DNA of 64,000 nucleotides, taken from a bacterium (GTDB taxonomy: Bacteria > Patescibacteriota > Minisyncoccia > Phycocordibacterales > UBA9973). Below are positions 4,247 through 43,797 of this stretch, piece after piece (the stretch's first letter is position 1; each line of letters begins with the position of its first letter). Location of the stretch: contig JAKAKW010000006.1 of the NCBI GenBank assembly GCA_021824345.1, forward strand, positions 10,257-74,256, given 5' to 3'. The notes below the pieces were generated by a model, which worked only from the letters and a program-made list of their open reading frames with translations, did not search any database and was not told where the DNA came from. The position numbers and the translations under genes are program-made.

Positions 4247-4836
4247 ATGGCAATGATATAAAATATTCCCAAGATTTTGAACTTCTCATGCCTCAAAAAC
4301 AGAAGTCCTATCCAATACCTGTTAATGAATGGTCTGTCTTAAAAAGAAAAATAAATAATATTTCAGAAAATGCAAATTTCTGGCATACATCCGGATCAAT
4401 ATTGATTGGTGTTGCAATCCCATCGTTTATCACTGCACTAACAGGATTCAATGAGTTAATATACTGGGGTGCCTTTGCCGTAACTGCTATTGCAGGAGGA
4501 CTTTGTTTTTATTTTGGCGTTGAACAACGCAACGTCCAAAATGAAAAAAAGGAAGATGTTATTGAATATATGGGGGTTATTGAGGAGAGATTCCGTATAA
4601 ATAATGCTTTATTTATAAACTCTGCTATGTATGGTATTGATGATAAATATATTGATATTACTTCCTCATTAAATTCCCATGTAGCTGATAGCAAGTTGTC
4701 AGTTAAAATATGCAATGAACTAGCTGGTGATGACCCTTATCCAGGAAAACAGAAGGAGTTAAAAATTGAATATACATTAGAAGGATTAAGACAGTCCACT
4801 ACTCTCAGCGAAGGCAGTATCCTTAATTTAGGATAA
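4243..4836 (+). CDS. Hypothetical membrane protein (2 predicted TM helices), translationally coupled to the upstream zinc-ribbon ORF
   Basis: 4-nt start/stop overlap with the upstream ORF. Two hydrophobic segments (ILIGVAIPSFITAL, GAFAVTAIAGGLCFYF). Confidence 0.5.
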   Translation: MNGNDIKYSQDFELLMPQKQKSYPIPVNEWSVLKRKINNISENANFWHTSGSILIGVAIPSFITALTGFNELIYWGAFAVTAIAGGLCFYFGVEQRNVQNEKKEDVIEYMGVIEERFRINNALFINSAMYGIDDKYIDITSSLNSHVADSKLSVKICNELAGDDPYPGKQKELKIEYTLEGLRQSTTLSEGSILNLG

Positions 4837-4919
4837 TATCTTCTTTTTTCCAAAAGATATATTGTAATATTTAATTTCTTTCTGTAGACATTCTGTATTA
4901 GATGTTGTAGTATTACAGA

Positions 4920-5570
4920 ATGTCAATAAATAGAGAAGAACTTACTTCCACGTTTTTAAAGATGAGAGATTTGTTTGTTGCTGACCCAACTAATGCCGTA
5001 AGAAGTAAATCTTTCATTACTGCATTTCAAGACTATTGTGAATACGAATTGAGGGCTAGAAATCTAGAAGTAAATGGGTTTCATATAGAAAAGGAATGGA
5101 AAATTGAGGTTGAAAGGGGGAGAGTAGAAGCAGATGTAGGCATCTTTGATAAAGATAATCAACCTGTCTTAATAGTTGATGTCAGAAGCCAAATGAGTTC
5201 TCTTGGAAAGAATTTTAATAACTATATAAGAATGAAAGCAGGAGAAGTTGAGAGTGTGCATAAAAAATACCCCAATTGTGTTGATGGTCTAGTATACATT
5301 CATCAAGCCGGAGATTTAAAAACAAATGGTAACATAAATCCTGTTGGCGTATTTAATTATAGTAATGCTGTAAAACAATTAGGTCTATTGTCGGGGCGTA
5401 AAGATGCCAATGGTCCTGCAAGCCTTTTTGAACAAGTTGCATATTGTATTATAGATTTCAACAGTCCTGCGCCTAAACTGTCCGACATCCATGATGTTCT
5501 TGATCTTCAGTTAGAGAATTTTTTTGATAATCTAGCGGACACACTCAAAGAACGCACAAACATAGATTAA
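4920..5570 (+). CDS. Putative restriction endonuclease partner of the adjacent methyltransferase (hypothetical, 216 aa)
   Basis: Convergent with the N6-adenine methyltransferase and sharing overlapping stop codons with it, inside the AT-rich island. A weak acidic D/E-x-K-like patch (EVERGRVEADVGIFDKD) is present, but no family can be named. Confidence 0.35.
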   Translation: MSINREELTSTFLKMRDLFVADPTNAVRSKSFITAFQDYCEYELRARNLEVNGFHIEKEWKIEVERGRVEADVGIFDKDNQPVLIVDVRSQMSSLGKNFNNYIRMKAGEVESVHKKYPNCVDGLVYIHQAGDLKTNGNINPVGVFNYSNAVKQLGLLSGRKDANGPASLFEQVAYCIIDFNSPAPKLSDIHDVLDLQLENFFDNLADTLKERTNID

Positions 5571-7390
5571 TTTACCAATTGGTATTTCTCAGATAAGAAC
5601 TTGTTGATTTCGTTCTTTTCTCCTAATGCAAGAAGCTTTCTTTTTTCTTCTAATGAGAAGCTTGGAATTGAAAAATTCTTTACATAGTTCTTTGCAAATG
5701 ATTTAAAGCCACCAGAGTAGTTTTTACTCGTCTTTTTAATGTAAAACCACATTAAGTCTGAATTTAAAACTTTTTCTAGTATTCGGAAATCCTCCTGTTT
5801 CTTAGGATAGATTGCATAACCACAGTAAAAAAGAGTTTCTTCTTCTTCAACTACAACAAAAGAAGGTCTGTTACCCATCATTGGCAATATAATTTTCTTA
5901 CCAAAACCATTTAAACCCTGTGTTCTTCCGTAAGCATACCAAGCTTCATACTTCTTTAACCCTTTATCTCTTAGGTCAAGTTCATTTTTTATAGCACACA
6001 AATAATCGTAGGTTTTTGGAAACCTTGATTTTATGTGTGATTCAGGAAGTATTTTTGCTCTACCCTTGTTCCCATATTCATAAGGATATATTATTCTTTC
6101 CTTGTTATTTTTAAGAGTTTCTAAATCCTTAACCTTATTTGGTTTAATTATCTTTTTTGTGAAATCTCGTTCTATTTGATACGTTTTTCCATTATATTCT
6201 TTTAAGAGGTACTTGTTATCATTGTTATCATTTACTAGAAACAAATCATTATTTAAAGTGGCTAATCCGGTTATAAATTTGTCTACATATTTAAATAATG
6301 GTGAACCAGAATTTTCAATTCTGAATATATTTTCAGCATCTTTTTTTGATAAAAATCTCCATTCTTTTTTGCCCAAGAGAAAGTGGTTTAAATTATCAAA
6401 TTTAAGTTTGCTTAGTTCTTTTATTTTTTCTTTTTTATCAACTAAACTGAACTTAATTTCATCAGCTCCTTTTTTATTCAGTATTGTTATGCAAGTATAA
6501 GTTATTGCTCCTTCAAAAATTTGCCATCCATTAAAATCAACTATTTTCTCTAAATATTTGTTTTTGAATATAAATTCACGTACAAGCTGTGCATTAGAGG
6601 ATGTTAAATAAGTGTTTGGAGTTATGAAACCTATTATCCCTGCACTGTGTGTAATATCTACTGCCAATTCAAAAAAGGGAATATACAAATCTACGTTTCC
6701 AAAATTTGCAGTTTCCCATTTTTTAATATTCTGCCTAACACTAAATCTTAAATTTTTTGTTCTAACGTATGGCGGGTTTCCAATAATATAATTGAAACCA
6801 GAAAAAGATGGAATGTGTTTCTTCCAATTGAAATCTAAACTATCGCCTTCAAATATATTGAATTCAAAATCATTATCTTCTCCGCTTGTAATAGCTAACA
6901 AGGATAAAATTATTTTTGTCCTTAAAACACTATTAGGTAAAATATCTACTCCATATATATATTTTTTAAATATTTCTTTAAATGAAAGGTTAAATTTTTT
7001 ATTTAAAAATTTTGATGCCTCAATCAAGAAAGCTCCGCTGCCACATGCAGGATCACATACTGTGCCCAGATCCCTAACGGTTTCTTGAACAATATATGAG
7101 ACCACTCCCGTTGGGGTATAATATGAACCGTTAACCTTTCTATCTTCCTCATTAACATTTAATTCATATAAACCTTCCAATAATTCAATATCAGGAACAA
7201 TTAATCTAGAATCAAACCAGAAGGTAATTCCTTGATTAATATTTCGTTCAATAATTGATTTAATTAGTTTGTTTTTTACTGCCTTTATTCCAGCTTTTTT
7301 AAGAACATTACTTATCACAAAAGTCTCTACATCCTGGAAAGAGTAGCAGGACAATTCTTTACTGATTTTTATAATGGGATAGTCCATCAT
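5567..7390 (-). CDS. N6-adenine-specific DNA methyltransferase (gamma class; type II/IIG-like with C-terminal target-recognition region)
   Basis: AdoMet motif I VCDPACGSGAFL lies upstream of catalytic motif IV GNPPYV, which is the gamma-class order. An extension of about 300 aa follows. Confidence 0.8.
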   Translation of the reverse strand: MMDYPIIKISKELSCYSFQDVETFVISNVLKKAGIKAVKNKLIKSIIERNINQGITFWFDSRLIVPDIELLEGLYELNVNEEDRKVNGSYYTPTGVVSYIVQETVRDLGTVCDPACGSGAFLIEASKFLNKKFNLSFKEIFKKYIYGVDILPNSVLRTKIILSLLAITSGEDNDFEFNIFEGDSLDFNWKKHIPSFSGFNYIIGNPPYVRTKNLRFSVRQNIKKWETANFGNVDLYIPFFELAVDITHSAGIIGFITPNTYLTSSNAQLVREFIFKNKYLEKIVDFNGWQIFEGAITYTCITILNKKGADEIKFSLVDKKEKIKELSKLKFDNLNHFLLGKKEWRFLSKKDAENIFRIENSGSPLFKYVDKFITGLATLNNDLFLVNDNNDNKYLLKEYNGKTYQIERDFTKKIIKPNKVKDLETLKNNKERIIYPYEYGNKGRAKILPESHIKSRFPKTYDYLCAIKNELDLRDKGLKKYEAWYAYGRTQGLNGFGKKIILPMMGNRPSFVVVEEEETLFYCGYAIYPKKQEDFRILEKVLNSDLMWFYIKKTSKNYSGGFKSFAKNYVKNFSIPSFSLEEKRKLLALGEKNEINKFLSEKYQLVN

Positions 7391-7707
7391 ACAGTTAATT
7401 ATAACTTACTTTTCCTAAAATAGTTAACATATTTATATCCTTATTTCTCAACATAATCTGTTTGTTTTTTATAAAGGTATTTTTATATTTAATATAGTTT
7501 TGTTAAGAAATAGCGAACATTCACAATATCTATTAAAAATATGTTGGAAAATAAAGATACTAATAAATAAATGGGCAATTATCATTGTTTTTGGTTTTTG
7601 GGTTAAAAACCAACTTTTCATCAACTTTGTTTATAAGTTTAAACAAAGTTTTTTCTGTGGGCATAAATTTATGGTTTTTTGGTATAAACCATCTTTTCAC
7701 AGAATTC

Positions 7708-7827
7708 CTAGAACCATTTTATACCTACCTTAAAGGCAATGCTTATTACTAAAATTAAAATGGTTACTAAAAGAATCACAATCCAGTTAAATGCGTTTTT
7801 GAATGATTTGTAGTCTTGGTCATCCAT
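7708..7827 (-). CDS. Candidate 39-aa single-TM peptide (MDDQDYKSFKNAFNWIVILLVTILILVISIAFKVGIKWF), possible type I toxin-like small protein
   Basis: Hand-translated minus-strand ORF ending in TAG. A highly structured region with interleaved inverted repeats lies immediately 5' of it on that strand. Confidence 0.2.
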   Translation of the reverse strand: MDDQDYKSFKNAFNWIVILLVTILILVISIAFKVGIKWF

Positions 7828-8080
7828 AATCTTGATTGATTTAGCTGACCAGAAACCAAAAAGCTCCTAGCCAGACATACAGGTTTCCCTGTAAGGCACG
7901 GTCAGTGCAAACTCTGACTAGGAGTTTTTTACCACTGACCGTGTCTCACATTCACCATGCCTCTATTGCTAAAGGTTTAGGCTACTTTGTATTAAATTGT
8001 ATGTAGTGATTTTACCTCTTTTGCTTGTAAAAACAAAGTAGGTTATTTGTTTTCTTGATTATAGCGTGTAGAATAAGGAC

Positions 8081-8794
8081 ATGAAAGGGGTTAATGAAAC
8101 AAAGAAATATAACAATCTGATTGAATCAGGACTGGAACTATTATCAAAAGCCCAAAGCTATATAGATACTTTTGACCACAACAGAGTGTATGGTCCTTCT
8201 GATTTAGAAGAGGTGAGTTCGTCTTTTGACATAGTAGAGGAATATCATAATTGGGTGAAAAGCATAATTAAATTTTATAAGTCAGATGATGATAAAGATA
8301 AGATTCTTACCTCTTTCTTTAAGGAAGTAGATGGTGTTCCTACTTTGGACTGGCTAGAGGATAATCACTATATGGAAGGTGATCCAATGCCAGCTAGTAT
8401 TGCTACTTCAATTCTAACTGAGGGGAAGAAAAAGCTAGAATATATCAGAAAAATATATGGCACAGAAAATGTTGGTAATGATAAGAAAATAATTCTGCTG
8501 GTAAATAAGAAAACAAATGAAATTACAGTGAAGGATAAAAATCATTTAAAGCATTCCTTCCGCAGGACATATGGAATAAACAAACGTCTTGGATATTTAA
8601 TCAAGATATACAAAACTCCAAAGATTGGTGGGGCTGTTTTAGCAGGTACTCCTAAGTTACAAAACATTAGTAAAGAATTGAAGAAAATCAATGCTGACTT
8701 AATGGAAGATTTGGATTTGCAGGATAATGTGATTATGAATGATAACAACTCCGGCTACTACATAAACCCAAAATACATTTTTGAATTTACTTAA
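8081..8794 (+). CDS. Hypothetical protein (island cargo)
   Basis: 237 aa AT-rich ORF with no recognisable motif. Confidence 0.45.
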   Translation: MKGVNETKKYNNLIESGLELLSKAQSYIDTFDHNRVYGPSDLEEVSSSFDIVEEYHNWVKSIIKFYKSDDDKDKILTSFFKEVDGVPTLDWLEDNHYMEGDPMPASIATSILTEGKKKLEYIRKIYGTENVGNDKKIILLVNKKTNEITVKDKNHLKHSFRRTYGINKRLGYLIKIYKTPKIGGAVLAGTPKLQNISKELKKINADLMEDLDLQDNVIMNDNNSGYYINPKYIFEFT

Positions 8795-8927
8795 ACAAGA
8801 TTTCTTAGTAAACCTTTTGTTGTTGTTAACCTAAACTAAACAAACCTTACCTACAAAGGTTTGTTTTCATTTTAACCCTACATAATTATAACTATTTTTG
8901 CGTACTTCTTTTTTCTAAAGTTAGGAT

Positions 8928-9128
8928 GTGAAGCCAGAAATAGAAAAAATAATTGAACTCTTGCAACAGATAGAACCAGAAGCAAGCAAGGAAGAATTAG
9001 AGGCAAAAGCCCAGAATATTTGGGAAATTGCCCTTTTCTTGGTTCAGCTGAAGCTTAGAGAGCACTCTAAACAGCCAAAACCAATGGATTTGAGGACTTT
9101 GCCAGAAAATAGGGGGAATTCACCTTAG
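8928..9128 (+). CDS. Small hypothetical protein upstream of the serine recombinase (possible recombination directionality factor)
   Basis: 66 aa ORF. Its position immediately 5' of the integrase gene is the only argument for the function. Confidence 0.2.
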   Translation: MKPEIEKIIELLQQIEPEASKEELEAKAQNIWEIALFLVQLKLREHSKQPKPMDLRTLPENRGNSP

Positions 9129-9238
9129 TTATGGAAAGTCGTGCTTATAACAAATATTACAAGTTTTCGGATTCTAATTATTAGTAATGAGATTTTGAGA
9201 TTATAAAATTAAGAGGTTTACTTAAAGTAATAAGATAT

Positions 9239-10786
9239 ATGAAGAACAAAAAAAATATTAGCAAGCCCAATAATGACATCATCTACATCAGGGTAAGCTC
9301 AAAAGAACAGATTGAGAATTTTTCTTTGGACAATCAAGAAAAGTTCTGCAGAGAGTTTTGCAGGAGAACTGAACATAATGTATTGGCAGTTTTCAGAGAG
9401 GAAGGAGAATCAGCCAAGACAGCAGCCAGAACTCAACTGCAAAAAATGATAAGGTTTTGTGAGGTAAACAAAAAGCAGGTTGATAGGGTTGTAATTTACA
9501 AGGTAGATAGATTCTTCAGGAATGCTGGAGAGCACCTTGCTCTAAGAGCCACATTAAGAAAATTAAATATTTCTCTTGTGTCCGTTACTGAAGCATTTGA
9601 TGATACTCCAAGTGGCAAACTTCAGGAAACAATGTTGGCAGCCTTTGCCCAATTTGACAATGATGTCCGATCTCAAAGGACATATGAAGGCATGAGAGCA
9701 AGAGCCTTGAAAGGATTATGGCCAAATATTGCACCATGGGGCTATGTTAATACCAAAGATAAGTCAGGCAATAAAATTATTGCACCTCATCCTGAAAGAG
9801 CTCCTGTTGTGAAAATGATTTTTCAGGCTTATGCCACTGGAAAGTATAGTTTTAAGGAAATAGCATCTATGGCAAACAAATCTGGGCAGAAATCAAGGCA
9901 TGGATTGAGAATGAGCAAACAATTGGTTGTAAAAATAATTAAGAACCCAATTTACTATGGAAGAATTGCCATTCAGAAGCTTGATGTTGATGTGCAGGGA
10001 AGCCATGAGCCAATAGTTTCTAAGGAGTTATATGATGAAGCAAACTCTGGCAAAAGAAGTATTCATGGTCGGAAAATGCCCAGGAACAGGGATAGTCCCA
10101 CTTTTCCCTTGCGTGGGATTAAGTGCGGTGGTTGCTACAAAAGCATAACTGGTGGAAAGACCAGAAGTAAAACAGGCAGGTATTATCAATACTATGGCTG
10201 TTTTTGTGGTGATTGTTCCAAAAGGACCGCCATTCCCAAAGAGGATTTTGAGAATGAGTTTACAAAGTTCCTCTTTAAAATTACTCCTAGTGATAAACAC
10301 CTTAATGTATTAGGGGAGGCAATTAAGCTTGCCCACAAGAGTGAATTTAACTACATTCTGAATGAGGAAAAAAGATTGAACAACAGAATGGAGGAATTAA
10401 AGGAAAGGAAGGACAAGCTGTTGGATTTGAGAATTGAAGGGAAAATAAATGATGAAGATTTTACTCCTGCCAATGATAAATTGAAATTACAGATCGGAGA
10501 AGTTGAAAAAGAATTGAGTGAGCTGTCTTCTCCTGAACTTGAAATAGATAATGTGGTTGATTCCGGAATAAGTTTTATAAAGAATTTTCCTTATATATGG
10601 AGAAAACTGCATCCAAAGGATTTGAGAGTTTTAAGAAACCTTCTTTTCATGGGAAATCTTGTTTATCATTATCCAACTATCAAAACCCCTGAAGCATCCT
10701 GTATCTACAAGGTAAAACCTGAATTATTGGATGATAAGAATCGTTTTGTGACCTTACCGGGAATCGAACCCGGATTACTTGCTTGA
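9239..10786 (+). CDS. Large serine recombinase (site-specific integrase/resolvase family)
   Basis: N-terminal resolvase catalytic motif IIYIRVSSKEQ. A recombinase domain, a zinc-ribbon (CGGCYKS...YGCFCGDC) and a C-terminal coiled coil follow. The 515 aa length is typical of large serine recombinases, and the 3' end overlaps tRNA-Glu. Confidence 0.85.
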   Translation: MKNKKNISKPNNDIIYIRVSSKEQIENFSLDNQEKFCREFCRRTEHNVLAVFREEGESAKTAARTQLQKMIRFCEVNKKQVDRVVIYKVDRFFRNAGEHLALRATLRKLNISLVSVTEAFDDTPSGKLQETMLAAFAQFDNDVRSQRTYEGMRARALKGLWPNIAPWGYVNTKDKSGNKIIAPHPERAPVVKMIFQAYATGKYSFKEIASMANKSGQKSRHGLRMSKQLVVKIIKNPIYYGRIAIQKLDVDVQGSHEPIVSKELYDEANSGKRSIHGRKMPRNRDSPTFPLRGIKCGGCYKSITGGKTRSKTGRYYQYYGCFCGDCSKRTAIPKEDFENEFTKFLFKITPSDKHLNVLGEAIKLAHKSEFNYILNEEKRLNNRMEELKERKDKLLDLRIEGKINDEDFTPANDKLKLQIGEVEKELSELSSPELEIDNVVDSGISFIKNFPYIWRKLHPKDLRVLRNLLFMGNLVYHYPTIKTPEASCIYKVKPELLDDKNRFVTLPGIEPGLLA

Positions 10787-10820
10787 GAAGCAAGTGTCCT
10801 AACCGTTAGACGATAAGGCC
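10749..10820 (-). tRNA. tRNA-Glu (anticodon CTC)
   Basis: Cloverleaf folded by hand. The acceptor GGCCTTA/TAAGGTC pairs with a G-T wobble at 2-71 (a D-stem G-T wobble as well). D arm GTCT/GGAC, anticodon stem CTTGC/GCAAG with loop TTCTCAA, T arm CCGGG-TTCGATT-CCCGG. No encoded CCA. Confidence 0.8.
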
Positions 10821-11495
10821 GTCGGGAAAATATTAGCATTTATTTGGACAATAAAAAAGCACGTCAGCCGTCGGGACGTGCAATGAAAATTCATACATAC
10901 AGAACACCTGCCTTGCGCCGCTATCACCACCTCCTTTCACTTTGACGGACGGCTTCAGTGAACTTCAGGTAAAGATTATATTAACAGTAATGAAAGTCAA
11001 GAAAATCTGTTGAAAAATAAAACGGCCCTGAACTAGTGGCATCTAGTCAGGGCTTTAATTATTTGCCACTTAAGTGGCGAGGATACAATACACCCTAAAA
11101 TTTTGTTTTTTCAATTATGTCAGGACAAAACGCTAGGGAGGCTTTGATTCCATTGGGATAGAATCATCACCATTTGAGAAAGTTTTCCAGGGATTGTACT
11201 CGCCCTGAAAGGAGGTGACAGGAACGTACGGAATATAAATCATTCTCACCTCTCAATTTTTAAAATTTTAAAAATAACTTTAATTCTGAGCCCGACTTGT
11301 GTCGAACCTTTTGTTACTCTAGGCAACATAACAGCATTTTATGACGTCTAGCGCCTAGGTTAAGAATGCTTTCCGATTTGCTATTTAGGAAATACTTACT
11401 TTTTTTTATTTTAAAATAACAAGTCAGGCTCGGGTATTACCTTACAACTTCCACAAGAAGTGTCAATACAAACAGTGGAAAACTTCTGAAAGGCA

Positions 11496-18240: not shown

Positions 18241-19131
18241 ATGAAAACTCTTAGAGAATGCATCAAAGAAGCCGAAGAGAAGAAAGTCGCCATCGGCCAT
18301 TTCAATATATCAAATCTTGAGGCATTGCACGGCATTTACGCCGCCACCAAGCAGGTGTCCGAGCTTGCCGGTTATCAAGTGCCGGTGATTATCGGCCTCT
18401 CTGAGGGCGAGGAAGAATTTGTGGGCAGGCATGAAGCGGAAGCGCTCATTGCGGAGATAAGGGAAAATGATAATTATCCCATCTTTGTAAACGCGGATCA
18501 TCATCACAGTTTCGAGAGATTTAAAGAAAGCATTGATGCGGGCTATGACATGGCCATTATTGATGAAGTAAAGCTTTCCATTGAGGAAAATGCGGCCATC
18601 GTAAAGCAGTGCGTGGCATATGCAAAGGAAAAATCCAAGGAAGATAATCGCGATATCTTGGTGGAAGCGGAACTCGGCTTCATAGGTTCGTCTTCCAAGA
18701 TCAGGGACAAAATTCCCGAAGGCGTGAGCGAAGCAACAATGACCAAGCCCGAGGATGCCAAACATTTTGTGCAAGCCACCGGCATAGATCTTCTTGCTCC
18801 CTCGGTAGGTAATGTGCACGGCATGGTGAAAGGAGGCAATCCGAAATTGCATCCGGATAGGATAAAGGAAATAAAAGAAGCGGCAGGTGTGCCTCTTGTT
18901 CTTCACGGCGGTTCCGGCATTGCCGATGAGGATTTCACCGAGGCCATTGCGGCCGGCATCAGCGTGATTCACATAAATACCGAGATCAGGGTGGCGTACC
19001 ACGATGCCTTAAAAAAATTCATGGAAGAAAACCCAGACGAAACAACCCCATATCGCTTTCTTCAGCCCGGCGTAGAAGCCATTCAGAAGGTGGTGTTTGC
19101 GCGCATGAAGCTTTTCAATAACATGAAGTAA
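18241..19131 (+). CDS. fba: Class II fructose-bisphosphate aldolase
   Basis: Class II aldolase motifs (HFNISNLE, LHGGSGI) and metal-binding histidines. Confidence 0.85.
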   Translation: MKTLRECIKEAEEKKVAIGHFNISNLEALHGIYAATKQVSELAGYQVPVIIGLSEGEEEFVGRHEAEALIAEIRENDNYPIFVNADHHHSFERFKESIDAGYDMAIIDEVKLSIEENAAIVKQCVAYAKEKSKEDNRDILVEAELGFIGSSSKIRDKIPEGVSEATMTKPEDAKHFVQATGIDLLAPSVGNVHGMVKGGNPKLHPDRIKEIKEAAGVPLVLHGGSGIADEDFTEAIAAGISVIHINTEIRVAYHDALKKFMEENPDETTPYRFLQPGVEAIQKVVFARMKLFNNMK

Positions 19132-19132
19132 A

Positions 19133-20857
19133 ATGCCGGCGAGCAAGACTCCTAAATTTGACGCGCTGATTGATAAAATTTTGGACGATCTCGTTCAGCA
19201 TGAGCGTGTTTGCGCGGACTGCGGCAAAGAATTCAAAATAGAGGCGGAAGATATTACGTTTCTAAAAATGTTCAGAGTTCCACCTCCGAAACTTTGCCCA
19301 CAGTGCAGGCAAAGGCGTCGGCTTTCTTTCGTAAACTATTCAAATATATATAAACGCAAATGCGATGTGCCCGGACATAGTGAAACAATGATTTCCCAGA
19401 CTGCCCCGGTGATGCCCTGGGTCACATATGACCACGATACTTACTATTCCGATTCCTGGGACCCTTTCTCTTATGGAATGGATATAAAGACAGGCGAGCC
19501 GTTCTTGGGGCAATTCCTTGAACTTTTGAGAGTGGTGCCTCAGCCAGGAGTCCGGCGCGGTTCTGAATCGCCGAACAGCGATTACAGTTTCTACGGGAAG
19601 CATATGAAGGATTGCTATTATGTCTTCGGAGGACGCCGTTCGGAGGACATCATGTACGGCTCGGCAATTTATGACTCAAGACATATAGTTGATTCATATT
19701 TTGTACGAAACGTGGAACTTTCCTACGACAATGTGAGCACAAACAATTGCCACAAATGCAAACATGCGTATTTTTCTTCCGATTGTATTGATTGTGATTT
19801 CATTTATGACTGCCGCAATTGCCAGAATTGTTTCGGGTGCGTGAACCTGCGAAACAAGAACTACTGTTGGTATAATGAACAGCTTTCCAAGGAAGAATTT
19901 GAAAAGAGAAAGAAAGAATCAGGCCTGAGTAGGCGATCATCTTCTATAAAATATTCCAAGGAGTTTTGGAAATTAGTAAAGAATAATCCGGTCAGGGCGT
20001 CCAGAGTGTTTCAGTCGGAAAACGTTTCTGGTAACGATATCAAGCGTTGTCGAGACTGCCGGGATGTTTTTCAGATTGAAGATTCTGAAAATGTCAGGCA
20101 TTCAGGGTTTGTGCTGGTTTTTGTGAAAGATTCCATGGACATGAGCCTAAGCGGGCATGTGGAACGGATTTATGACAGTCAGAATGTCGGTACGACCGAT
20201 GTGAAATTTTCCTTTGGCGTGAAGGGGTCCTCGGAATGTGAATATTCGATGAACCTGAATGATTGCCAAAATTGCTTTGGATGTATTGGATTAAGGAGCG
20301 CCTCGTATAGCATATTTAATAAAAAGTATTCTCCAGAAGAATACTGGAAAAAGCTGGATGACATAAAGTCTGACATGTTGGAGCGAGGAGAATACGGCGA
20401 GTTCTTTTCCATGCCCTTTTCTCCTATGGCGTATAACAGCTCTCTGGCGCATATTCTTTATCCCATGAGTGAAGAAGAAGCGAAAAAACGCGGGCTGTAT
20501 TGGCAGGAAGAAACAGACGTAGATACGAAAGGACTAAACGCTACAAAGGCGGATGAACTTCCGGACGATATAGCGAATGCGAACGCTGACGTATGTAAAT
20601 TGGCAGTAATCGGGGAAGTTTCAGGCAAGCCGTTTCGGATAACCCAAAGAGAGCTTGAGTTTTATAAGCGGGAAAATGTTCCGCTTCCAACTGATACTCC
20701 ATATCAGAGAATACTGGATAGGTTTGCCATATTGAACAATTTTCAGACATTTTCAGAAAAATGTTTTTCCTGCGGCAAGACAATTGATTCTTCCTATCGC
20801 ATCTCGGAAGGCTGGAAGCCGTATTGTGAGGAATGCTTCAGAGAAGAAGTGTTATAA
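19133..20857 (+). CDS. Cysteine-rich multi-zinc-ribbon protein, paralog 1 of 3 (uncharacterised family)
   Basis: 574 aa. N- and C-terminal CxxC...CPxCR zinc-ribbon-like modules and internal CQNCFGC..LR...Y..N..YS.EE repeats. Clearly paralogous to the ORFs at 40301 and 42058. It starts 2 nt after the fba stop. Confidence 0.6.
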   Translation: MPASKTPKFDALIDKILDDLVQHERVCADCGKEFKIEAEDITFLKMFRVPPPKLCPQCRQRRRLSFVNYSNIYKRKCDVPGHSETMISQTAPVMPWVTYDHDTYYSDSWDPFSYGMDIKTGEPFLGQFLELLRVVPQPGVRRGSESPNSDYSFYGKHMKDCYYVFGGRRSEDIMYGSAIYDSRHIVDSYFVRNVELSYDNVSTNNCHKCKHAYFSSDCIDCDFIYDCRNCQNCFGCVNLRNKNYCWYNEQLSKEEFEKRKKESGLSRRSSSIKYSKEFWKLVKNNPVRASRVFQSENVSGNDIKRCRDCRDVFQIEDSENVRHSGFVLVFVKDSMDMSLSGHVERIYDSQNVGTTDVKFSFGVKGSSECEYSMNLNDCQNCFGCIGLRSASYSIFNKKYSPEEYWKKLDDIKSDMLERGEYGEFFSMPFSPMAYNSSLAHILYPMSEEEAKKRGLYWQEETDVDTKGLNATKADELPDDIANANADVCKLAVIGEVSGKPFRITQRELEFYKRENVPLPTDTPYQRILDRFAILNNFQTFSEKCFSCGKTIDSSYRISEGWKPYCEECFREEVL

Positions 20858-20864: not shown

Positions 20865-22553
20865 ATGGTAATGAAAGAAGAAATTCAGAAATTTTTCAAA
20901 GGAGAGATAGCGGACGACGAAGAAACCTTAATTAAATATTCCAGAGACGCCAGCTTGTTTATCATCCGACCCAAGCTGGTGCTTTTTCCGCAAGATTCGG
21001 AGGATGTACAGAATCTGGTGAAATGGGTGGGAGACAACAAGAAAAAATATTCGGAGCTTTCCATTACGGCGCGCTGCGCGGGTACGGATATGTCCGGAGG
21101 CGCGATAAATGAGTCATTGATAATAGATTTTACCAAGCACATGAACAAGCTGATTTCAGGCCCAAGCGCTGTCGGTCCCGACGGATATGCCACTATCACA
21201 GTACAGCCCGGAATGTTTTATCGCGATTTTGAAAAGATTACTCTTAAACACGGACTCATCTTGCCGTGCTTTACCGCCTCCAAGAGCTTGAATGCCATGG
21301 GAGGAATGTTCGGTAACAATTCCGCGGGAGAGCGCACTCTCAAATACGGCAAAACCGAAGACTACGTGGCCGGGGCGAAAGTGGTATTTTCCGACGGAGT
21401 GGAAAGGGAAGTAAAGGAGCTTTCCAAAGAAGAATATGCGAAAAAAGCCGGGCAGAAAGATTTTGAAGGAGATGTGTACAGCGGAATCGGCAAGCTCATA
21501 GATGCCAACAAAGAGGAGATCATGAAAGCCAAGCCGAACGTGCACAAGAATTCCGCCGGGTATTATCTCTGGAACGTAGAAAGACCGAACGGGGATTTTG
21601 ATTTGAATCGTGTCCTTATAGGTTCCCAGGGCACGCTTGGCATTGCCACCGAAATCACTTTCAAGATTTTGCCGGTTCCTAAACATACGCGTTTATTAGT
21701 GGTATTTCTTCGGGACATCAGCATATTGCCGGACCTGGTGAACAAAATATTAAAGTACAAGCCGCAAACGCTGGAATTCTACGATGACAAAACTCTGCTT
21801 TTGGTTTTTAAGTATATCTGGAGTTTTGCCAAGCTCTTGGGCATCCAGCATTTTTTCCGGCTCATTGCGAGCTTCTGGCCCGAGGCCTTGATGACACTTC
21901 GGCACGGCTTCCCGCGCATAGTGCTTCTGGTGGAGTTTACCGGCGATACTGTCGAAGTCGCGGACGGCTTGGCGAAAAAAACTATGGAAGAACTAAAAAC
22001 TGTAAAAGGCATCGGTTTCCGTCTGACCAGGAACAAGTTTGAATCCGAGAAATATTGGACCATCAGGCGGCAAGCTTTCAACCTTATCCGTTTTCATCTG
22101 AAAAAGATGAAATCCGAGCCATTCGTGGACGACGTGATTGTACGGCCGGAAAAATTGCCCGAGTTCTATCCGGCTCTTTATAAAATATTGAACGAATACA
22201 AGGGAGAGATGACTTTCGCAGTGGGCGGACATTCCGGAGAAGGGAACATGCATATTTACACCCTGCTTGATCCGAGAGACCCGCATCTGAAGGAGATCGT
22301 GCTCAAAGTTTCAAGCGAAGTGTATTCCTTGGTGGTAAGGCTCGGAGGTTCCATTACCGCCGAGCACAACGACGGCCTGGTGCGCACGCCATTCTTGCCT
22401 GAAATGTACGGAGAAAAAATCATGGCGTTATTCAAGCAAGTAAAGGATATCCTTGATCCGAAAGATATCTTCAATCCCGGCAAAAAAATCGCCGTTCCCG
22501 GCGGTCCGGGCACCAAGGAGTATCTAAAAGCTCATATTGCGGTAGGAAAATAG
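20865..22553 (+). CDS. FAD-linked oxidase (GlcD / D-lactate dehydrogenase-like, FAD_binding_4 family)
   Basis: FAD-binding PCMH-type domain (RCAGTDMSGGAINESLIIDF) and a C-terminal FAD-oxidase domain. The start was moved to the ATG preceded by AAAAGGA, after the upstream stop. Confidence 0.8.
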   Translation: MVMKEEIQKFFKGEIADDEETLIKYSRDASLFIIRPKLVLFPQDSEDVQNLVKWVGDNKKKYSELSITARCAGTDMSGGAINESLIIDFTKHMNKLISGPSAVGPDGYATITVQPGMFYRDFEKITLKHGLILPCFTASKSLNAMGGMFGNNSAGERTLKYGKTEDYVAGAKVVFSDGVEREVKELSKEEYAKKAGQKDFEGDVYSGIGKLIDANKEEIMKAKPNVHKNSAGYYLWNVERPNGDFDLNRVLIGSQGTLGIATEITFKILPVPKHTRLLVVFLRDISILPDLVNKILKYKPQTLEFYDDKTLLLVFKYIWSFAKLLGIQHFFRLIASFWPEALMTLRHGFPRIVLLVEFTGDTVEVADGLAKKTMEELKTVKGIGFRLTRNKFESEKYWTIRRQAFNLIRFHLKKMKSEPFVDDVIVRPEKLPEFYPALYKILNEYKGEMTFAVGGHSGEGNMHIYTLLDPRDPHLKEIVLKVSSEVYSLVVRLGGSITAEHNDGLVRTPFLPEMYGEKIMALFKQVKDILDPKDIFNPGKKIAVPGGPGTKEYLKAHIAVGK

Positions 22554-40177: not shown

Positions 40178-40300
40178 GCCGAGGAGACAGGGTTTGAAGC
40201 ACTGAGTAGTGGGCGGAGGGTTGCCCCTGCCTGCCGGCAGGCAAGGCTGACAGGCAGGCTCTGCCCTAGATTTTTTCGATGGGCGTGGTACTATTTAAAC

Positions 40301-42055
40301 ATGACGACAGAAACCCAGCAATGCCAGAATTGTAAAAATGATTTCACCATTGAACCGGAAGACTTCGGTTTCTACGAAAAAATCAAAGTGCCTCCGCCCA
40401 CTTGGTGCCCGGAGTGTCGCTTGGTTCGACGCTTGATCTGGCGCAATGAGCGCGAGCTGTATAAAAGAAAATGCTCAATGTGCGGGAAGGACATGATTTC
40501 CATTTGCGGTCCATTTAATACTTCGACTGTATATTGCAAAGATTGCTGGTGGAGCGACAAATGGGATCCGATGTCGTACGGTGCTGAATATGATTTTGGA
40601 AAAGATTTTTTTACTCAATTCCAAGACCTCATGAGAAAAGTTCCCTTAATTAGCCTGTTCACCGGGGGAACGCAAGTGAACTCAGATTATACGAACTTTA
40701 CTGCCAGTAACCGGGACAGTTATTTGGTTTTTGGCGGAAATGAAAATGAACAAGTGACTTATGCCAAGAATGCCTCATATTCAAAAAACTCCTCAGATAT
40801 TTTGAGCGGGGATAAGCTGGAATTATGCTATGAGGACATTGAATGTATTAATTCTTACCGTCTATCTTTTAGCCGGCAATGCGAGAATTGTACGGACTCC
40901 GTCTTTCTTTTTGACTGCAGAAACTGCCAAAACTGTTTTGCCTGCGTCAATTTGCGCAACAAAAGTTATTGCATTTGGAACACGCAGTACAGTAGAGAAG
41001 ACTACCTGAGAAAGATAGAGGAAATGAAACTGGGCAGCAATTCGTCGCTGCAGAAAACAAAGGCGCAATTTAAGGATTTTTCAGAAAAGGCAATTTGCAA
41101 ATATGCGCATATGCTGAACACAAAAGGCTCAACGGGCAACAATCAGGAAAATACCAGGAATTGCAGATCGTGCTTTGACGTGTTCGGCGACGGGTCGGAG
41201 AACAGCAAATATTCCCATTATGTAGTCAAAGGGATAAGCGATTCTTATGATAATTATGGCGTGAAAAGGGCTGAAAGGGTATATGAGACTATTGCCATAG
41301 GATTCGAAATGAACGAGAATTCCGATTATTATTTTGATTTTTTCGTAAAAGGGTGCAGCCGGGCATATTATTCCAGCAACTGCATATCCTGCGACGATAT
41401 ATTCGGATGCGCCAATTTGCGGAAAAAGCAATATTGCATTTTAAATCGCCAGTATTCCAAAGAAGAGTACGAAGCACTTTTGCCGAAAATAATAAAGCAG
41501 ATGGGCGATATGCCCTATACGGACAAGACAGGGAAAGTATATAGATTTGGCGAATTTTTCCCTCCTGAATTTTCTCCTTTTGCGTACAACGAGGCTATCG
41601 TGCAGGAATATTTTCCACTGGACGAAAAGAGAGCGAGTGAACGTGGTTTTGCCTGGAGAAAAAGAGAGGAGCGTGATTATAAGATTGACATTGAATATGA
41701 AAAGCTCCCTGACGACATAAAAGATTCTGCCGACGATATTGCCGGCAAAGTTATTGAATGCGCACACAAAGGAGAGTGTGATGAGCAATGTACGGAAGCG
41801 TTTAAGATTCTTCCCAAAGAACTAGTCTTTTATAGACAAATTGGTGTTCCATTGCCGCGTCTTTGCCCTAATTGCCGGCATTACGAAAGACAGAAGCAAA
41901 GGAATCCTATGAGGCTTTGGCATCGCTCCTGCATGTGTGACAAGCAGAATCATGGTCACCAAGGTGCTTGCCCCAACATTTTTGAGACCAGCTATGCTCC
42001 CGAACGGCCCGAAAAAATATATTGCGAAGAGTGCTACAACAAAGAGGTATATTAG
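40301..42055 (+). CDS. Cysteine-rich multi-zinc-ribbon protein, paralog 2 of 3 (uncharacterised family)
   Basis: 584 aa, same architecture as the ORFs at 19133 and 42058. The termini are nearly identical in motif (QCQNCKxxFxIxPEDFxFYEKIKVPPPTWCPECR ... PLPxLCPNCRxYER...EKIYCEECYNKEVY). Confidence 0.6.
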   Translation: MTTETQQCQNCKNDFTIEPEDFGFYEKIKVPPPTWCPECRLVRRLIWRNERELYKRKCSMCGKDMISICGPFNTSTVYCKDCWWSDKWDPMSYGAEYDFGKDFFTQFQDLMRKVPLISLFTGGTQVNSDYTNFTASNRDSYLVFGGNENEQVTYAKNASYSKNSSDILSGDKLELCYEDIECINSYRLSFSRQCENCTDSVFLFDCRNCQNCFACVNLRNKSYCIWNTQYSREDYLRKIEEMKLGSNSSLQKTKAQFKDFSEKAICKYAHMLNTKGSTGNNQENTRNCRSCFDVFGDGSENSKYSHYVVKGISDSYDNYGVKRAERVYETIAIGFEMNENSDYYFDFFVKGCSRAYYSSNCISCDDIFGCANLRKKQYCILNRQYSKEEYEALLPKIIKQMGDMPYTDKTGKVYRFGEFFPPEFSPFAYNEAIVQEYFPLDEKRASERGFAWRKREERDYKIDIEYEKLPDDIKDSADDIAGKVIECAHKGECDEQCTEAFKILPKELVFYRQIGVPLPRLCPNCRHYERQKQRNPMRLWHRSCMCDKQNHGHQGACPNIFETSYAPERPEKIYCEECYNKEVY

Positions 42056-42057: not shown

Positions 42058-43797
42058 ATGCCGCCCGAGACCAAACAATGCCAAAATTGCAAGGGGAGCT
42101 TCATCATTGACCCCGAAGATTTCTCATTTTACGAAAAAATCAAAGTGCCTCCGCCGACATGGTGTCCGGAATGCCGGATGCAAAGGCGATTGCGATTCAG
42201 AAATGAAAGAGAATTGTATCACTTTACTTGCGGACTCTGCGGGAAGAGGGGTATTTCAATGTACAAACCGGAATCTCCCTTTCCCATATATTGCGTGAAC
42301 TGCTGGTATTCTGACAAATGGGATGAGCTCTCTTGCGGTGCGGATTATGATTTTTCCAAGCCATTTTTTGAACAAATGAACGATCTGTTTAAAAAAGTTC
42401 CGCGAGCCAATATTTTTCTGAGGAATATAGTGAACGGGGAATATTCAAACATCAACGGAGAAAGTAAAAACGTGTATCTTACGTATTCGGCCAACGGATC
42501 GGAAAATGCGTATTACTCCAAAGCCGTAGATAAATCCAAAGGCGTTTTTGATTGTTTGAATACCGTAAGCTGCGGAAACTGCTACGAAGTCGTACGCGGA
42601 GAAAATAATTACAACTGCAGCTTTTTGACTTTGTCTCGCAATTGCATAGACTCTTCTTTTCTTTACGATTGCTCGGATTGCAGCAACTGCTTTTTATGCG
42701 CTGGATTGTGCAGTAAGAAATTCTGCATTGAAAACAAGCAATATTCCGAATCTGAATATAACGACAAGGTGAAGCACATGAATACGAGAAGCAGGGCAGG
42801 AGTAAAAAAAGTTAAAGAAAAGTGGACAGAACTTATTCTTAAGTTTCCGCATAGATACGCATATATAATGCGGTCTGTGAACAGCACCGGGGACGATTTG
42901 GAAGGCGATAAAAATGTAAAATTATCTTTTGAAATATATAACAGCGAAAATACCAAGTTCCTCCTTCGATGCTTTGGAGCCAAGGATTCATACGACGGAA
43001 ATAATATTGCGAACTCCGAAATGGTGTACGAGTTTGCGGGCGGGGGCGCGAATGACAGCTCGCGCCTCTTGTTCTCCAGCAATGGAATAAAAAACCTAAG
43101 AAATGCCGAATATACAGATTACTGTTTCTCTTCTTCAGACGTATTCGGCGGAATATCCTTAAGAGGGAAGAAATATTGCATTTTGAACAGGCAATATTCA
43201 GAGCAAGAATACAAAAGATTGCTGCCGAAGGTGATTCAGCACATGAATAACATGCCGTACAAAGACGCAAGCGGGAATGTTTACAAATACGGGGAATTTT
43301 TCCCGCCTGAACTTTCTACGTTTTGTTACAACGAGTCTTTAGCTCAGGAGTATTTCACTTTAACCAAAGATGAAGCGGAAAAACGCGGATATTCATGGAA
43401 GGACAGGGAAGAGAGAAATCTTGACATTAATATCAAATACGAAGATATCCCGGATGATATCAAGAATGTGAATGAAGAAATTGTCGGCAAGGTCATTGAA
43501 TGCGGGCACAGGGGCGCATGCAATGAAAGATGTACAGGGGCTTTCAAAATAATCCAAGAAGAATTTTACTTTTATATAAAAGCTGGAATTCCTTTGCCTG
43601 GCCTCTGCCCTAATTGCCGGTATTATGAAAGGCTAAAACAAAAAAACCCTATAAAGCTCTGGCACAGGGCATGCATGTGCGAAAACATGAGTCATGGCCA
43701 CAAGGAAAAATGCCAGAACGAGTTTGAGACTCCATATGCCCCTGAGCGGCCCGAAAAAATATATTGCGAAGAGTGCTATAACAAAGAAGTTTATTAG
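42058..43797 (+). CDS. Cysteine-rich multi-zinc-ribbon protein, paralog 3 of 3 (tandem with paralog 2)
   Basis: The ATG lies 2 nt after the stop of paralog 2. The first 60 and last 80 residues are about 70% identical to paralog 2. Confidence 0.6.
   Translation: MPPETKQCQNCKGSFIIDPEDFSFYEKIKVPPPTWCPECRMQRRLRFRNERELYHFTCGLCGKRGISMYKPESPFPIYCVNCWYSDKWDELSCGADYDFSKPFFEQMNDLFKKVPRANIFLRNIVNGEYSNINGESKNVYLTYSANGSENAYYSKAVDKSKGVFDCLNTVSCGNCYEVVRGENNYNCSFLTLSRNCIDSSFLYDCSDCSNCFLCAGLCSKKFCIENKQYSESEYNDKVKHMNTRSRAGVKKVKEKWTELILKFPHRYAYIMRSVNSTGDDLEGDKNVKLSFEIYNSENTKFLLRCFGAKDSYDGNNIANSEMVYEFAGGGANDSSRLLFSSNGIKNLRNAEYTDYCFSSSDVFGGISLRGKKYCILNRQYSEQEYKRLLPKVIQHMNNMPYKDASGNVYKYGEFFPPELSTFCYNESLAQEYFTLTKDEAEKRGYSWKDREERNLDINIKYEDIPDDIKNVNEEIVGKVIECGHRGACNERCTGAFKIIQEEFYFYIKAGIPLPGLCPNCRYYERLKQKNPIKLWHRACMCENMSHGHKEKCQNEFETPYAPERPEKIYCEECYNKEVY

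Follow-up and report, generated by a model that had tools for sequence, protein, structure and literature searches.

The gene cys1 belongs to type I, the single-copy branch of a large, uncurated Cys-rich protein family that is confined to Patescibacteria. The place of its sister clade (type II) in a dnaK-dnaJ operon is a better clue to its function than its own place behind fba, which comes from the dense spacing of genes within a single small lineage and not from a link to glycolysis.

Results

A third copy of the family behind fba

The cys1 open reading frame (19133..20857, + strand) starts with ATG and encodes 574 aa, including 26 Cys and 10 His. It lies between fba, encoding class II fructose-bisphosphate aldolase (18241..19131, +; PF01116, E=4.5e-70), and a gene for an FAD-linked oxidase (20871..22553, +; PF01565 and PF02913), which confirmed the reading frame and gene order of the first-pass annotation. 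A single base separates the TAA stop codon of fba (19129-19131) from the ATG at 19133. The oxidase start was placed at ATG 20871 (or 20865), after AAAGGA and 13 (or 7) nt past the cys1 stop at 20857; ATG 20871 is in frame and is the start called on the identical contig, and the TTG at 20784 given in the ORF list was rejected. A protein identical to that of cys1 (P0001) was present on 17 contigs.

Two type II paralogs stand in tandem elsewhere in the 64-kb window (the whole stretch of DNA analyzed): cys2 (40301..42055, +; 584 aa with 36 Cys and an intact set of four terminal fingers) and cys3 (42058..43797, +; 579 aa), whose ATG at 42058 follows the cys2 stop by 2 nt. The cys3 start at TTG 42022 in the ORF list, which would overlap cys2, is unlikely. 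A tblastn search of the window with cys1 recovered both paralogs over their full length (40298-42049, E=7.6e-96; 42073-43791, E=8e-73), and cys1 is thus a real paralog of the tandem pair. Full-length identity to the pair was 33-35% and 30-31%, compared with 49% between cys2 and cys3. The alignment of the three copies, which the first-pass annotation had recommended, mapped the invariant Cys together with many invariant non-Cys columns (129 invariant columns, mostly non-Cys). The similarity is not confined to generic CxxC spacing, because 52 non-Cys positions were at least 85% conserved across 159 members of the family.

The product of cys1 aligned over its full length with the family, shared its non-Cys motifs, and had all eight outer Cys and CQNCFGC twice (residues 230-236 and 378-384), as had been annotated; the second CQNCFGC was better kept in cys1 than in the tandem pair (CDDIFGC and SSDVFGG). 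The divergence previously seen at the WDP motif and the C-terminus was also recovered, with SWDP in cys1, KWDP in cys2, and KWDE in cys3, and with a terminal YCEECFREEVL in cys1 vs. YCEECYNKEVY. The claim that both terminal zinc ribbons are kept held for the outermost sites (C27/C30/C55/C58 and C544/C547/C565/C568), whereas the two inner zinc sites have been lost.

Terminal fingers and central repeats

Members of the family are cytoplasmic, approximately 575 aa long, and consist of a zinc-finger module, repeat A, repeat B, and a second zinc-finger module homologous to the first. As read from their sequences, type I proteins keep the outermost finger alone at either end. The N-terminal zinc finger 1 (19211..19306, +) has the pattern C..C-x24-CPxCR (C27, C30, C55, C58), each Cys being present in 96-99% of the 159 members, and is followed by a basic helix (CRQRRRL); it matched Zn_ribbon_8 and zf_Tbcl weakly, below cutoff in both cases. 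The second N-terminal finger (19361..19441, +) is degenerate: the CxxC-x17-CxxC of the tandem pair has become C-x3-P...D...T in cys1 (C77-DVPGH...YDHDTY; columns C-P-D-T vs. C-C-C-C in cys2 and cys3). The first half of the C-terminal module (20540..20731, +), a homologue of the N-terminal module, contains a finger without any Cys (VIGEVSGKPFRITQRELEFYKRENVPLPTDTPYQR), in which the C..C..CPNC of the tandem pair is replaced by G..S..T..Q (columns G-S-T-Q vs. C-C-C-C). The last finger (20762..20836, +) has the exact form C544-x2-C547-x17-C565-x2-C568, and its four Cys were invariant in 159 of 159 members.

The two central repeats, approximately 120 aa each, occupy 19550..19918 (+; repeat A, residues 140-262) and 20000..20368 (+; repeat B, residues 290-412). 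They end in CRNCQNCFGC-VNLRNKNYC and DCQNCFGC-IGLRSASYS, respectively, each followed by a helix, and matched each other in blastp (E=9e-13, 31% identity); a joint alignment of the two was also built. The N-terminal and C-terminal modules also matched each other (blastp, E=5e-6), and the C-terminal module of cys3 matched the N-terminal modules of all three copies (E=3e-10 to 2e-5).

The AF2 model of full-length cys1 had a pLDDT of 82.5 and a pTM of 0.85; a model of the central domain only was poorer (pLDDT 63.5, pTM 0.38). The models showed a 12-residue strand periodicity, with EEEE--E--E-- repeats in DSSP. Nearly all Foldseek matches of the central-domain model (pLDDT 63.5) were beta-solenoids, none of them significant (all E values at least 0.45). 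The Tenebrio antifreeze protein (1EZG) turned up in both sequence-profile and fold searches, in both cases non-significantly. From low-confidence regions of the models (pLDDT 57-73) and non-significant Foldseek and HMM matches, we infer that repeats A and B may form short-rung beta-solenoids in which the Cys-x2-Cys runs would be mostly core residues. Searches of the PDB returned LIM/CRP proteins alone for the full-length profile (E no better than 0.02, spanning the last finger) and nothing better than E=0.59 for the repeat profile, and no PDB or Foldseek match assigned the family an activity. Neither a membrane-spanning hydrophobic segment nor a signal peptide was found in the family or in the VirD4-like ATPases described below, and a secreted or surface protein was rejected.

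Two clades in Patescibacteria

When clustered at 50% identity, the family gave 4,908, 3,605, and 2,132 clusters with E limits of 1e-3, 1e-10, and 1e-30, respectively; a word-index search gave 2,722 matches. Nearly all of the best-scoring 150 of the 4,908 clusters were 540-600 aa long. At least 532 family loci were present in species-representative genomes, and all credible names belonged to Patescibacteria. Much of bacterial diversity lies in this group, whose lineage-specific proteins for the most part have no assigned function. Profile scans of cys1-3, 38 homologues, and 42 repeat units yielded no family protein above a Pfam or NCBIfam cutoff, and PADLOC and PHROGs scans of cys1-3 yielded nothing above cutoff. 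No description of the family was found in the literature, including searches on the zinc-finger accessions.

Two clades were distinguished. The type I clade, which holds cys1, had 53 members in 52 loci, or approximately one per locus; the type II clade, which holds the tandem pair, had 93 members in 47 loci, and tandem arrays of two to six family copies were seen at some loci. Type II proteins are marked by intact inner fingers (the second N-terminal CxxC-x17-CxxC and the first C-terminal C..C..CPNC), often by a CMC..HGH insert, and by tandem copies. None of these traits applied to cys1, in which the insert was not found when aligned with cys2 and cys3. Both clades occurred in many Patescibacteria lineages, and the split between them is therefore older than the divergence of these lineages. 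The older duplication suggested for cys1 is supported by its separation from the tandem pair into a different clade, each clade spanning many lineages.

The proposed selection on the Cys framework was borne out in part. Mean conservation among the 159 members was 0.70 for Cys and 0.34 for other residues. Outer-finger Cys were conserved in 96-100% of members and those of the first central CxxCxxCxxC in 81-97%, whereas the inner fingers and the other central Cys were variable: all-Cys forms of the second N-terminal and first C-terminal fingers occurred in 34% and approximately 54% of members, respectively. Because Leu, Ile, Val, or Ser stand in place of central Cys in other members, these Cys would be better explained as buried residues of the core than as ligands of a metal.

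A dnaK-dnaJ cassette

Combining Pfam matches with gene orders, the type II genes were placed in a cassette with the order grpE, cutA, a paaX-like regulator (opposite strand), dnaK, a long ATPase, zero to four Cys-rich genes, a short ATPase, and dnaJ. The ATPases matched TrwB_AAD_bind, T4SS-DNA_transf, and HerA. The long ATPase carried TIGR04272/zf_Tbcl_2 (E=3.6e-14), and its finger stretch matched the N-terminal module of cys3 (E=2e-4). CutA1 (divalent-ion tolerance), besides being part of the cassette, was a neighbor in 7 of 79 family-centered loci; GIY-YIG genes were occasional neighbors of the family, and some cassette DnaJ proteins were short and without a zinc domain of their own (L112).

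A VirD4-like ATPase was found within approximately 5 kb in 23 of the 79 family-centered loci, compared with a chance expectation of approximately 2 of 79 based on approximately two such genes per genome (PMC12102498) and an assumed genome size of approximately 1 Mb. Conversely, at least one family gene was present in 61 of 80 ATPase-centered metagenome loci (45 of 52 among those at least 10 kb long), which had been chosen at 80% identity or more to one single ATPase. Type II accounted for 103 of the 111 family genes in these loci and type I for three. In 35 loci the family gene preceded the short ATPase on the same strand, with a median gap of 64 nt between them. In 64 of 68 loci, no more than 400 nt separated dnaJ from the short ATPase. 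Some cassettes had no Cys-rich gene between the ATPases; the link of the ATPases to dnaK and dnaJ was tighter than their link to the Cys-rich genes. Only 6 of 53 type I genes abutted a VirD4-like ATPase, and no VirD4-like ATPase, dnaK, or dnaJ was found near cys1 or anywhere in the 64-kb window.

Discussion

We propose that the family consists of zinc-stabilized adaptors or scaffolds for two soluble orphan VirD4/TraD-like ATPases. Type II proteins are co-encoded with these ATPases between dnaK and dnaJ, and the long ATPase has a CxxC-x17-CxxC finger like theirs. The treble-clef-like terminal fingers with their basic helices may be the binding ends, and the likeliest job would be to present or hold clients, either proteins or nucleic acid-protein complexes, in a remodelling pathway run by the ATPases and Hsp70, with cys1 being a dispersed, simplified form of the type II adaptor. 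We give a family of adaptors that serves both the orphan ATPases and Hsp70 slightly less than an even chance. It reaches type I by homology only, because few type I genes adjoin ATPases.

An extended proposal is unlikely: that the family, including cys1, provides zinc-finger/beta-solenoid adaptors to an unrecognized Hsp70-linked machine, whose two soluble VirD4-like ATPases would have been exapted from conjugation and would remodel proteins or nucleoproteins. If true, such a machine would account for the approximately two orphan coupling-protein genes per genome that the 2025 survey, in its relevant passages, leaves unexplained (PMC12102498). With the order dnaK, long ATPase, Cys-rich genes, short ATPase, dnaJ, the orphan ATPases gain a specific genomic setting that can be tested, together with candidate partners. 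The family itself is large (approximately 4,900 clusters at 50% identity), uniform in length, often present in several copies per genome, and without a curated model.

A metal or redox protein is unlikely, whether as a zinc buffer or store, as an Hsp33-like redox-switch holdase, or as an Fe-S carrier acting through the CxxCxxCxxC runs. In its favor, members have 26-36 Cys each, CutA1 recurs as a neighbor, the sister clade lies inside a heat-shock operon, and small CxxC-x17-CxxC proteins bind zinc by ICP-MS (PMC12704099). The top PDB Foldseek match was the zinc redox-switch domain of Hsp33, but this match was non-significant (E=0.83) and covered 53 columns of the zinc domain only, and an Hsp33 redox-switch chaperone was not adopted. 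Ferredoxin-type 4Fe-4S binding was rejected as the main reading, given that the central CxxCxxCxxC lacks the Pro of the ferredoxin motif (CxxCxxCxxxCP) and its Cys are replaced elsewhere in the family. Also against this reading, two of the four terminal sites can be lost, and the uniform length of 540-600 aa and the 52 conserved non-Cys positions favor a specific fold and partner over bulk metal binding.

It is distinctly unlikely that the proteins bind nucleic acids and assist the VirD4-like ATPases, which would act as DNA translocases (in uptake, segregation, or repair), with the place in a chaperone operon being incidental. This would agree with the treble-clef-like terminal fingers followed by Arg/Lys-rich helices (CRxxRRL..YKRKC), with the TrwB_AAD_bind, T4SS-DNA_transf, and HerA matches of the ATPases, and with the pentapeptide-type beta-solenoids, known DNA mimics, among the non-significant fold matches. 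However, the cassette includes no nuclease, relaxase, or recombinase partner, and, with dnaJ following the short ATPase at 64 of 68 loci, the chaperone context can hardly be incidental.

The first-pass annotation had taken co-transcription with a glycolytic gene as a hint of a housekeeping role. In our estimate there is a small chance that cys1 encodes a housekeeping protein functionally connected to central carbon metabolism, with its translation coupled to that of fba and its expression to that of the FAD-linked oxidase. The three genes are on the same strand with gaps of 1 and 13 nt, no terminator-like site was found on the + strand from obg to L25, and there is no obvious Shine-Dalgarno sequence before the cys1 ATG. 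In addition, the closest orthologues again lie in an obg-gatB-(fba)-Cys-oxidase-L25 block, and type I genes are single-copy and lie among housekeeping genes. However, the synteny comparison that had been recommended placed fba upstream of the family gene at no more than 3 of the 79 related loci (L008, L012, and L025, all with 60-63% identical orthologues), directly abutting in one (L012) and separated by a small winged-helix gene in the other two. The oxidase followed the orthologue in four loci only (L006, L007, L008, and L025), and a 61%-identity orthologue was located between EamA and Maf. Short gaps are routine here (18 of 42 same-strand gene pairs in the window are 15 nt or less apart), most genes, including operon-first genes, have no clear Shine-Dalgarno sequence, and promoter and terminator counts equalled the shuffled expectation. 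Translational coupling was therefore rejected as functional evidence, and a housekeeping role is not supported on this argument; the fba junction is ordinary gene packing and gives no ground for a metabolic interpretation. A core, non-accessory role for cys1 is nevertheless plausible because type I genes are single-copy, widespread, and situated among housekeeping genes.

A conflict or mobile-element family (defence component, phage-derived cargo, or secreted effector) is very improbable: it would explain the variable tandem copy number (arrays of two to six) and agree with the occasional GIY-YIG neighbors and the matches of the ATPases to PADLOC mad8 (E=5.6e-15), weakly to HerA models, and to phrog_5156 (E=1e-64), but the Cys-rich proteins had no PADLOC match, no tblastn match in 50,697 phage genomes, and only a weak match to the functionally unannotated phrog_15341 (cys1 residues 199-397, E=1e-4), signal peptides and membrane segments were lacking in the family and the ATPases, regional GC content equalled the genome background, synteny with core genes was stable, and only 148 of 5,713 Patescibacteria T4CP homologues lie near virB4 according to the survey's relevant passages (PMC12102498). 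A phage or plasmid origin was rejected on the phage search and GC content, and cys1 does not correspond to a known anti-phage or phage protein. A T4SS substrate or effector would depend on a membrane-anchored T4CP for translocation through a T4SS; indirect indications are that the neighboring ATPases have no membrane segment and that most Patescibacteria T4CP homologues lie far from virB4 (PMC12102498).

Relation to described systems

The outer fingers of cys1 resemble zf_Tbcl-type domains (zf_Tbcl, PF13451; zf_Tbcl_2, PF23477; TIGR04272), with the exact CxxC-x17-CxxC spacing at the C-terminus and the pattern C..C-x24-CPxCR at the N-terminus. Zinc binding has been demonstrated for small archaeal proteins with CxxC-x17-CxxC (PMC12704099). 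Some family members reached E=1.9e-7 (zf_Tbcl_2) and 1.2e-4 (zf_Tbcl), and 5 of 38 matched zf_Tbcl_2 or TIGR04272 at E of 0.01 or better. The cys1 product itself scored below the Pfam gathering thresholds for zf_Tbcl (15.1 vs. 24 bits) and Zn_ribbon_8 (PF09723; 17.6 vs. 34.4 bits) and did not match zf_Tbcl_2 or TIGR04272, for which cys3 scored 20 vs. 27 and 15.6 vs. 36 bits. The zf_Tbcl-type fingers are domains or small proteins of approximately 40 aa, whereas in this family they cap a protein of 575 aa with a central stretch of 300 aa that has no curated match.

With the DnaJ CXXCXGXG domain and the Hsp33 switch, the family shares a Cys-rich composition, zinc binding (predicted for the family), and a tie to Hsp70, in its own case through the genomic position of the type II clade. 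CQNCFGC superficially resembles the CxxCxGxG of DnaJ (PF00684), but repeat length and context differ, and PF00684 at E up to 1 matched none of cys1-3, the 38 homologues, or the 42 repeat units, whereas the model did find the DnaJ of a cassette locus (L099). Short-rung beta-solenoids (1EZG, pentapeptide-repeat proteins, and RP2/TBCC) share the 6-residue or 12-residue periodicity and the Cys or hydrophobic residue at every third position. They have no sequence homology to cys1, and the antifreeze protein 1EZG, unlike the family, is secreted and disulfide-bonded.

Orphan VirD4-type coupling proteins have been surveyed in 2,918 Patescibacteria genomes, with 5,713 genes counted, or approximately two per genome; the relevant passages of that survey describe them as far from virB4 and suggest exaptation, and do not mention Cys-rich neighbors or a dnaK-dnaJ context (PMC12102498). 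No description of a dnaK/T4CP operon in Patescibacteria was found in the literature, nor any earlier one of the conserved dnaK-ATPase-Cys-rich-ATPase-dnaJ cassette. The VirD4-type homologues are P-loop ATPases, whereas cys1 has no ATPase motif. They are the family's most frequent and reciprocal genomic partners, and their long form shares its finger.

The cys1 gene and its paralogs

The gene under study, cys1, is an ATG-initiated ORF of 574 aa on the plus strand (19133-20857). A single base separated its start from the TAA stop codon, ending at 19131, of the plus-strand class II fructose-bisphosphate aldolase gene (fba; PF01116, E = 4.5e-70). Downstream on the same strand lay a gene for an FAD-linked oxidase (PF01565 and PF02913); its real start was ATG 20871, as called on the identical public contig and confirmed in frame, so the gap between cys1 and the oxidase gene was 13 nt. 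The tandem paralogs, both on the plus strand, were cys2 (40301-42055, 584 aa) and cys3 (42058-43797, 579 aa), with cys3 starting 2 nt past the cys2 stop. The alternative cys3 start in the ORF listing (TTG 42022) would overlap cys2, and ATG 42058 gave back the conserved N-terminus MPPETKQCQNC; the pair thus abut stop to start, just as fba and cys1 do.

The cys1 protein matched cys2 and cys3 over the full length (tblastn, E = 7.6e-96 and 8e-73). It was 33-35% and 30-31% identical to the two members of the pair, which shared 49% identity with each other. All details quoted for cys1 in the first-pass annotation were present (SWDP vs. KWDP, the C-terminus CEECFREEVL, and two copies of CQNCFGC), and the similarity exceeded CxxC spacing: 52 non-Cys positions were at least 85% conserved among 159 full-length family members. 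None of the three proteins contained a membrane-spanning hydrophobic segment.

Family size and clades

The family is large, uncurated, and specific to Patescibacteria. No Pfam, NCBIfam, or PADLOC model matched the family proteins scanned at cutoff, and weak matches to zf_Tbcl, zf_Tbcl_2, Zn_ribbon_8, and LIM were confined to the termini. A word-indexed search returned 2,722 family matches, each annotated as "hypothetical" and carrying a Patescibacteria or Paceibacterota name. An exhaustive profile search over clusters at 50% identity returned 4,908, 3,605, and 2,132 clusters (E up to 1e-3, 1e-10, and 1e-30, respectively), and nearly all of the 150 best-scoring clusters listed were 540-600 aa long. 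Species-representative genomes held at least 532 family loci, from Nomura-, Giovannoni-, Staskawicz-, Gribaldo-, Morani-, Sungii-, Azam-, Kuenen-, and Jorgensenbacteria, Gracilibacteria, and others. The few family contigs labelled Gammaproteobacteria or Nanoarchaeota were all short MAG contigs, and were probably mis-binned. Literature searches found no published description of the family.

Average-linkage clustering of the 159 members gave two main groups. Type I, to which cys1 belongs (53 members, 52 loci), has degenerate inner fingers and an extra N-terminal helix (TPxFDAxLDxIL); 29 of the 53 members lay beside another family gene. Type II, to which the tandem pair belongs (93 members, 47 loci), often has intact inner fingers, and 79 of its 93 members lay beside another family gene. 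The older duplication suggested earlier was supported because both clades occurred across many lineages, and cys1 is a real, anciently diverged paralog. In some genomes (e.g., locus L011) a type I member lay within a tandem array, which is consistent with an origin of type I by tandem duplication and subsequent dispersal.

Protein architecture and predicted fold

Judged by its sequence, the cys1 protein is an internal pseudo-duplication. Residues 140-262 aligned with residues 290-412 (E = 9e-13, 31% identity), and these repeats and the corresponding units of other members aligned jointly as a single family. Homology also joined the first ~110 residues and the last ~100 (E = 5e-6), and the cys3 C-module matched the N-modules of all three copies (E = 3e-10 to 2e-5). 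These homologies define a modular zinc-finger and repeat architecture with five parts: an N-terminal zinc-finger module, the repeats A and B, a conserved linker (YGEFF...YN), and a C-terminal zinc-finger module.

Each terminal module of the tandem pair carries two Cys4-type sites; cys1 keeps only the outermost of each (C27/C30/C55/C58 and C544/C547/C565/C568, the latter with exact CxxC-x17-CxxC spacing), the inner sites being reduced to C-P-D-T (N-terminal) and G-S-T-Q (C-terminal). The CMC..HGH insert was also absent from cys1. Among the 159 members, Cys conservation was 96-100% in the outer fingers, 81-97% in the first central CxxCxxCxxC, 48-95% in the second central motif, and about 54% in the inner C-terminal finger; all four Cys of the inner N-terminal finger were present in 34%. 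Leu, Ile, Val, or Ser replaced the central Cys in other members, which suggests that these residues are buried in the core and are not metal ligands. We consider it unlikely that the family consists of metal or redox proteins.

The AlphaFold2 model of cys1, built with 38 homologues, was confident overall (pLDDT 82.5, pTM 0.85); the two repeats were less confident (57-73) and had short strands every ~6-12 residues. Foldseek of the full-length model found nothing significant: the best PDB match was the Hsp33 zinc domain (E = 0.83) and the best BFVD match a "putative zinc-ribbon domain protein" (E = 6e-3). A model of the central domain alone was poor (pLDDT 63.5), with a DSSP string of period 12 (EEEE--E--E--). 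Its Foldseek list, nonsignificant throughout, consisted almost entirely of beta-solenoids (SV2C luminal domain, RP2/TBCC, tailspikes, NosD, AlbG, and pectate lyases) and included the Tenebrio antifreeze protein 1EZG. The repeat profile had two matches among PDB sequences, one of them also 1EZG (E = 1.8, compositionally biased).

Association with VirD4-like ATPases and the Hsp70 operon

By genomic position, type II genes were strongly and reciprocally linked to two orphan VirD4-like ATPases of the Hsp70 operon. When all ORFs of 79 family-centred loci were clustered, the single outstanding neighbour was a soluble P-loop ATPase (37 genes in 23 loci); approximately 2 of 79 loci were expected by chance, given ~2 genes per genome and an assumed genome size of ~1 Mb. 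Its matches, all weak, were to TrwB_AAD_bind, T4SS-DNA_transf, TraG-D_C, DUF87/HerA, and the NCBIfam TraD/VirD4 models. The short form (~485 aa) was very conserved (mean column identity 73%). The long form (~700-790 aa) carried a CxxC-x17-CxxC finger recognised by TIGR04272 (E = 3.6e-14); this stretch matched the cys3 N-module (E = 2e-4). Of the long-form proteins inspected, the three longest (L044, L054, and L045) ended in a long, Pro-rich, low-complexity tail. Two ATPases of L044 (983-3349 and 5266-6723) matched phrog_5156, a phage family of unknown function (E = 1e-64 and 1.7e-49), and L044 ATPases also matched the PADLOC model mad8 (E = 5.6e-15). [quoted passage not shown]

In the reciprocal direction, 61 of 80 metagenome loci retrieved around the short ATPase carried at least one family gene (45 of 52 where the locus was at least 10 kb long). 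Type II accounted for 103 of the 111 family genes and type I for 3. The median distance from the end of a family gene to a short ATPase on the same strand was 64 nt (35 loci). The gene order was (rplM-rpsI)-grpE-[Cys]-cutA-paaX-like regulator (opposite strand)-dnaK-long ATPase-Cys x0-4-short ATPase-dnaJ-[Cys], as checked with Pfam on L112 (1053-10700) and L099 (1590-12593) and scored over all loci. Of the 68 loci whose sequence reached far enough, 64 had dnaJ within 400 nt downstream of the short ATPase; dnaK preceded the long ATPase by at most 800 nt in 19 of 29. Two forms of the closing dnaJ occurred, of 218 aa (L112:10044-10700 and L143:11588-12244) and 361 aa (L099:11508-12593); in Pfam, the L112 protein had a DnaJ domain and a partial DnaJ_C without the CXXCXGXG zinc domain, which was present in L099. 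Within the 64-kb window, no dnaK, dnaJ, grpE, or VirD4-like ATPase was found, and the tandem pair was flanked by RRF/RseP and MetAP/Ddl.

We tentatively propose that the family proteins are zinc-stabilised adaptors or scaffolds for the two VirD4-like ATPases. On this model, binding would take place through the terminal fingers, ATPases and adaptors would act in an Hsp70-connected remodelling pathway, and type I would represent a dispersed relative of simplified form. That the proteins are nucleic-acid-binding partners of a DNA translocase accords with the weak coupling-protein matches of the ATPases; set against the neighbouring chaperone genes, we regard it as rather unlikely.

The fba junction

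The gene order on the identical contig was obg, gatB, fba, Cys-rich gene, oxidase, L25, SLT, L31, RF1. The fba junction is lineage-local: fba lay upstream in only 3 of the 79 related loci (L008, L012, and L025), all with orthologues of 60-63% identity. A small gene, missing from the window, was interposed in L008 and L025, and direct abutment was limited to L012 and the window. The oxidase gene followed the orthologue only in L006, L007, L008, and L025, and one orthologue of 61% identity was flanked by EamA and Maf. The interposed L008 ORF (4709-4987, ~92-95 aa) had winged-helix matches (HVO_A0114, HTH_24, and MarR-like); its L025 equivalent (~105 aa) fell outside the same cluster.

Within the window, 18 of 42 same-strand gene pairs were at most 15 nt apart and 11 at most 5 nt, with a coding density of 89%. 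A clear Shine-Dalgarno sequence was missing at most starts, including those of operon-first genes, and promoter-like and terminator-like sites occurred at the frequency expected from shuffled sequence. On this evidence cys1 is probably co-transcribed with fba, as first surmised, but this conveys little about function. A metabolic housekeeping protein tied to fba, argued for by the junction itself and against by its rarity, is improbable.

Phage similarity and other features of the window

Residues 199-397 of cys1 (19727-20323), from the end of repeat A to the end of repeat B, weakly matched phrog_15341 (E = 1e-4), a phage family of unknown function, and tblastn with cys2 found no match in phage genomes; a conflict or mobile-element gene is very improbable.

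Elsewhere, a low-GC island (4000-11000; 29-34% vs. about 47% elsewhere) is probably an integrated mobile element. On its minus strand it encodes an Eco57I/MmeI-like N6-DNA methylase that has a TaqI-like specificity domain (5567-7390), and on its plus strand a large serine recombinase (9239-10786); several of its ORFs matched nothing in Pfam. No Pfam family matched a 663-aa ORF adjoining mreB (34731-36722, minus strand) at E up to 1e-3.

Comparison with known systems

By itself, the third copy beside fba is a modest finding. For Patescibacteria research the family context has real interest, since it opens the question of the orphan coupling proteins to testing. Literature searches found no published description of the dnaK-ATPase-Cys-ATPase-dnaJ cassette and, as far as they go, this cassette, the central repeats, and the full architecture are undescribed. 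The terminal domains are zinc fingers of already-known kinds.
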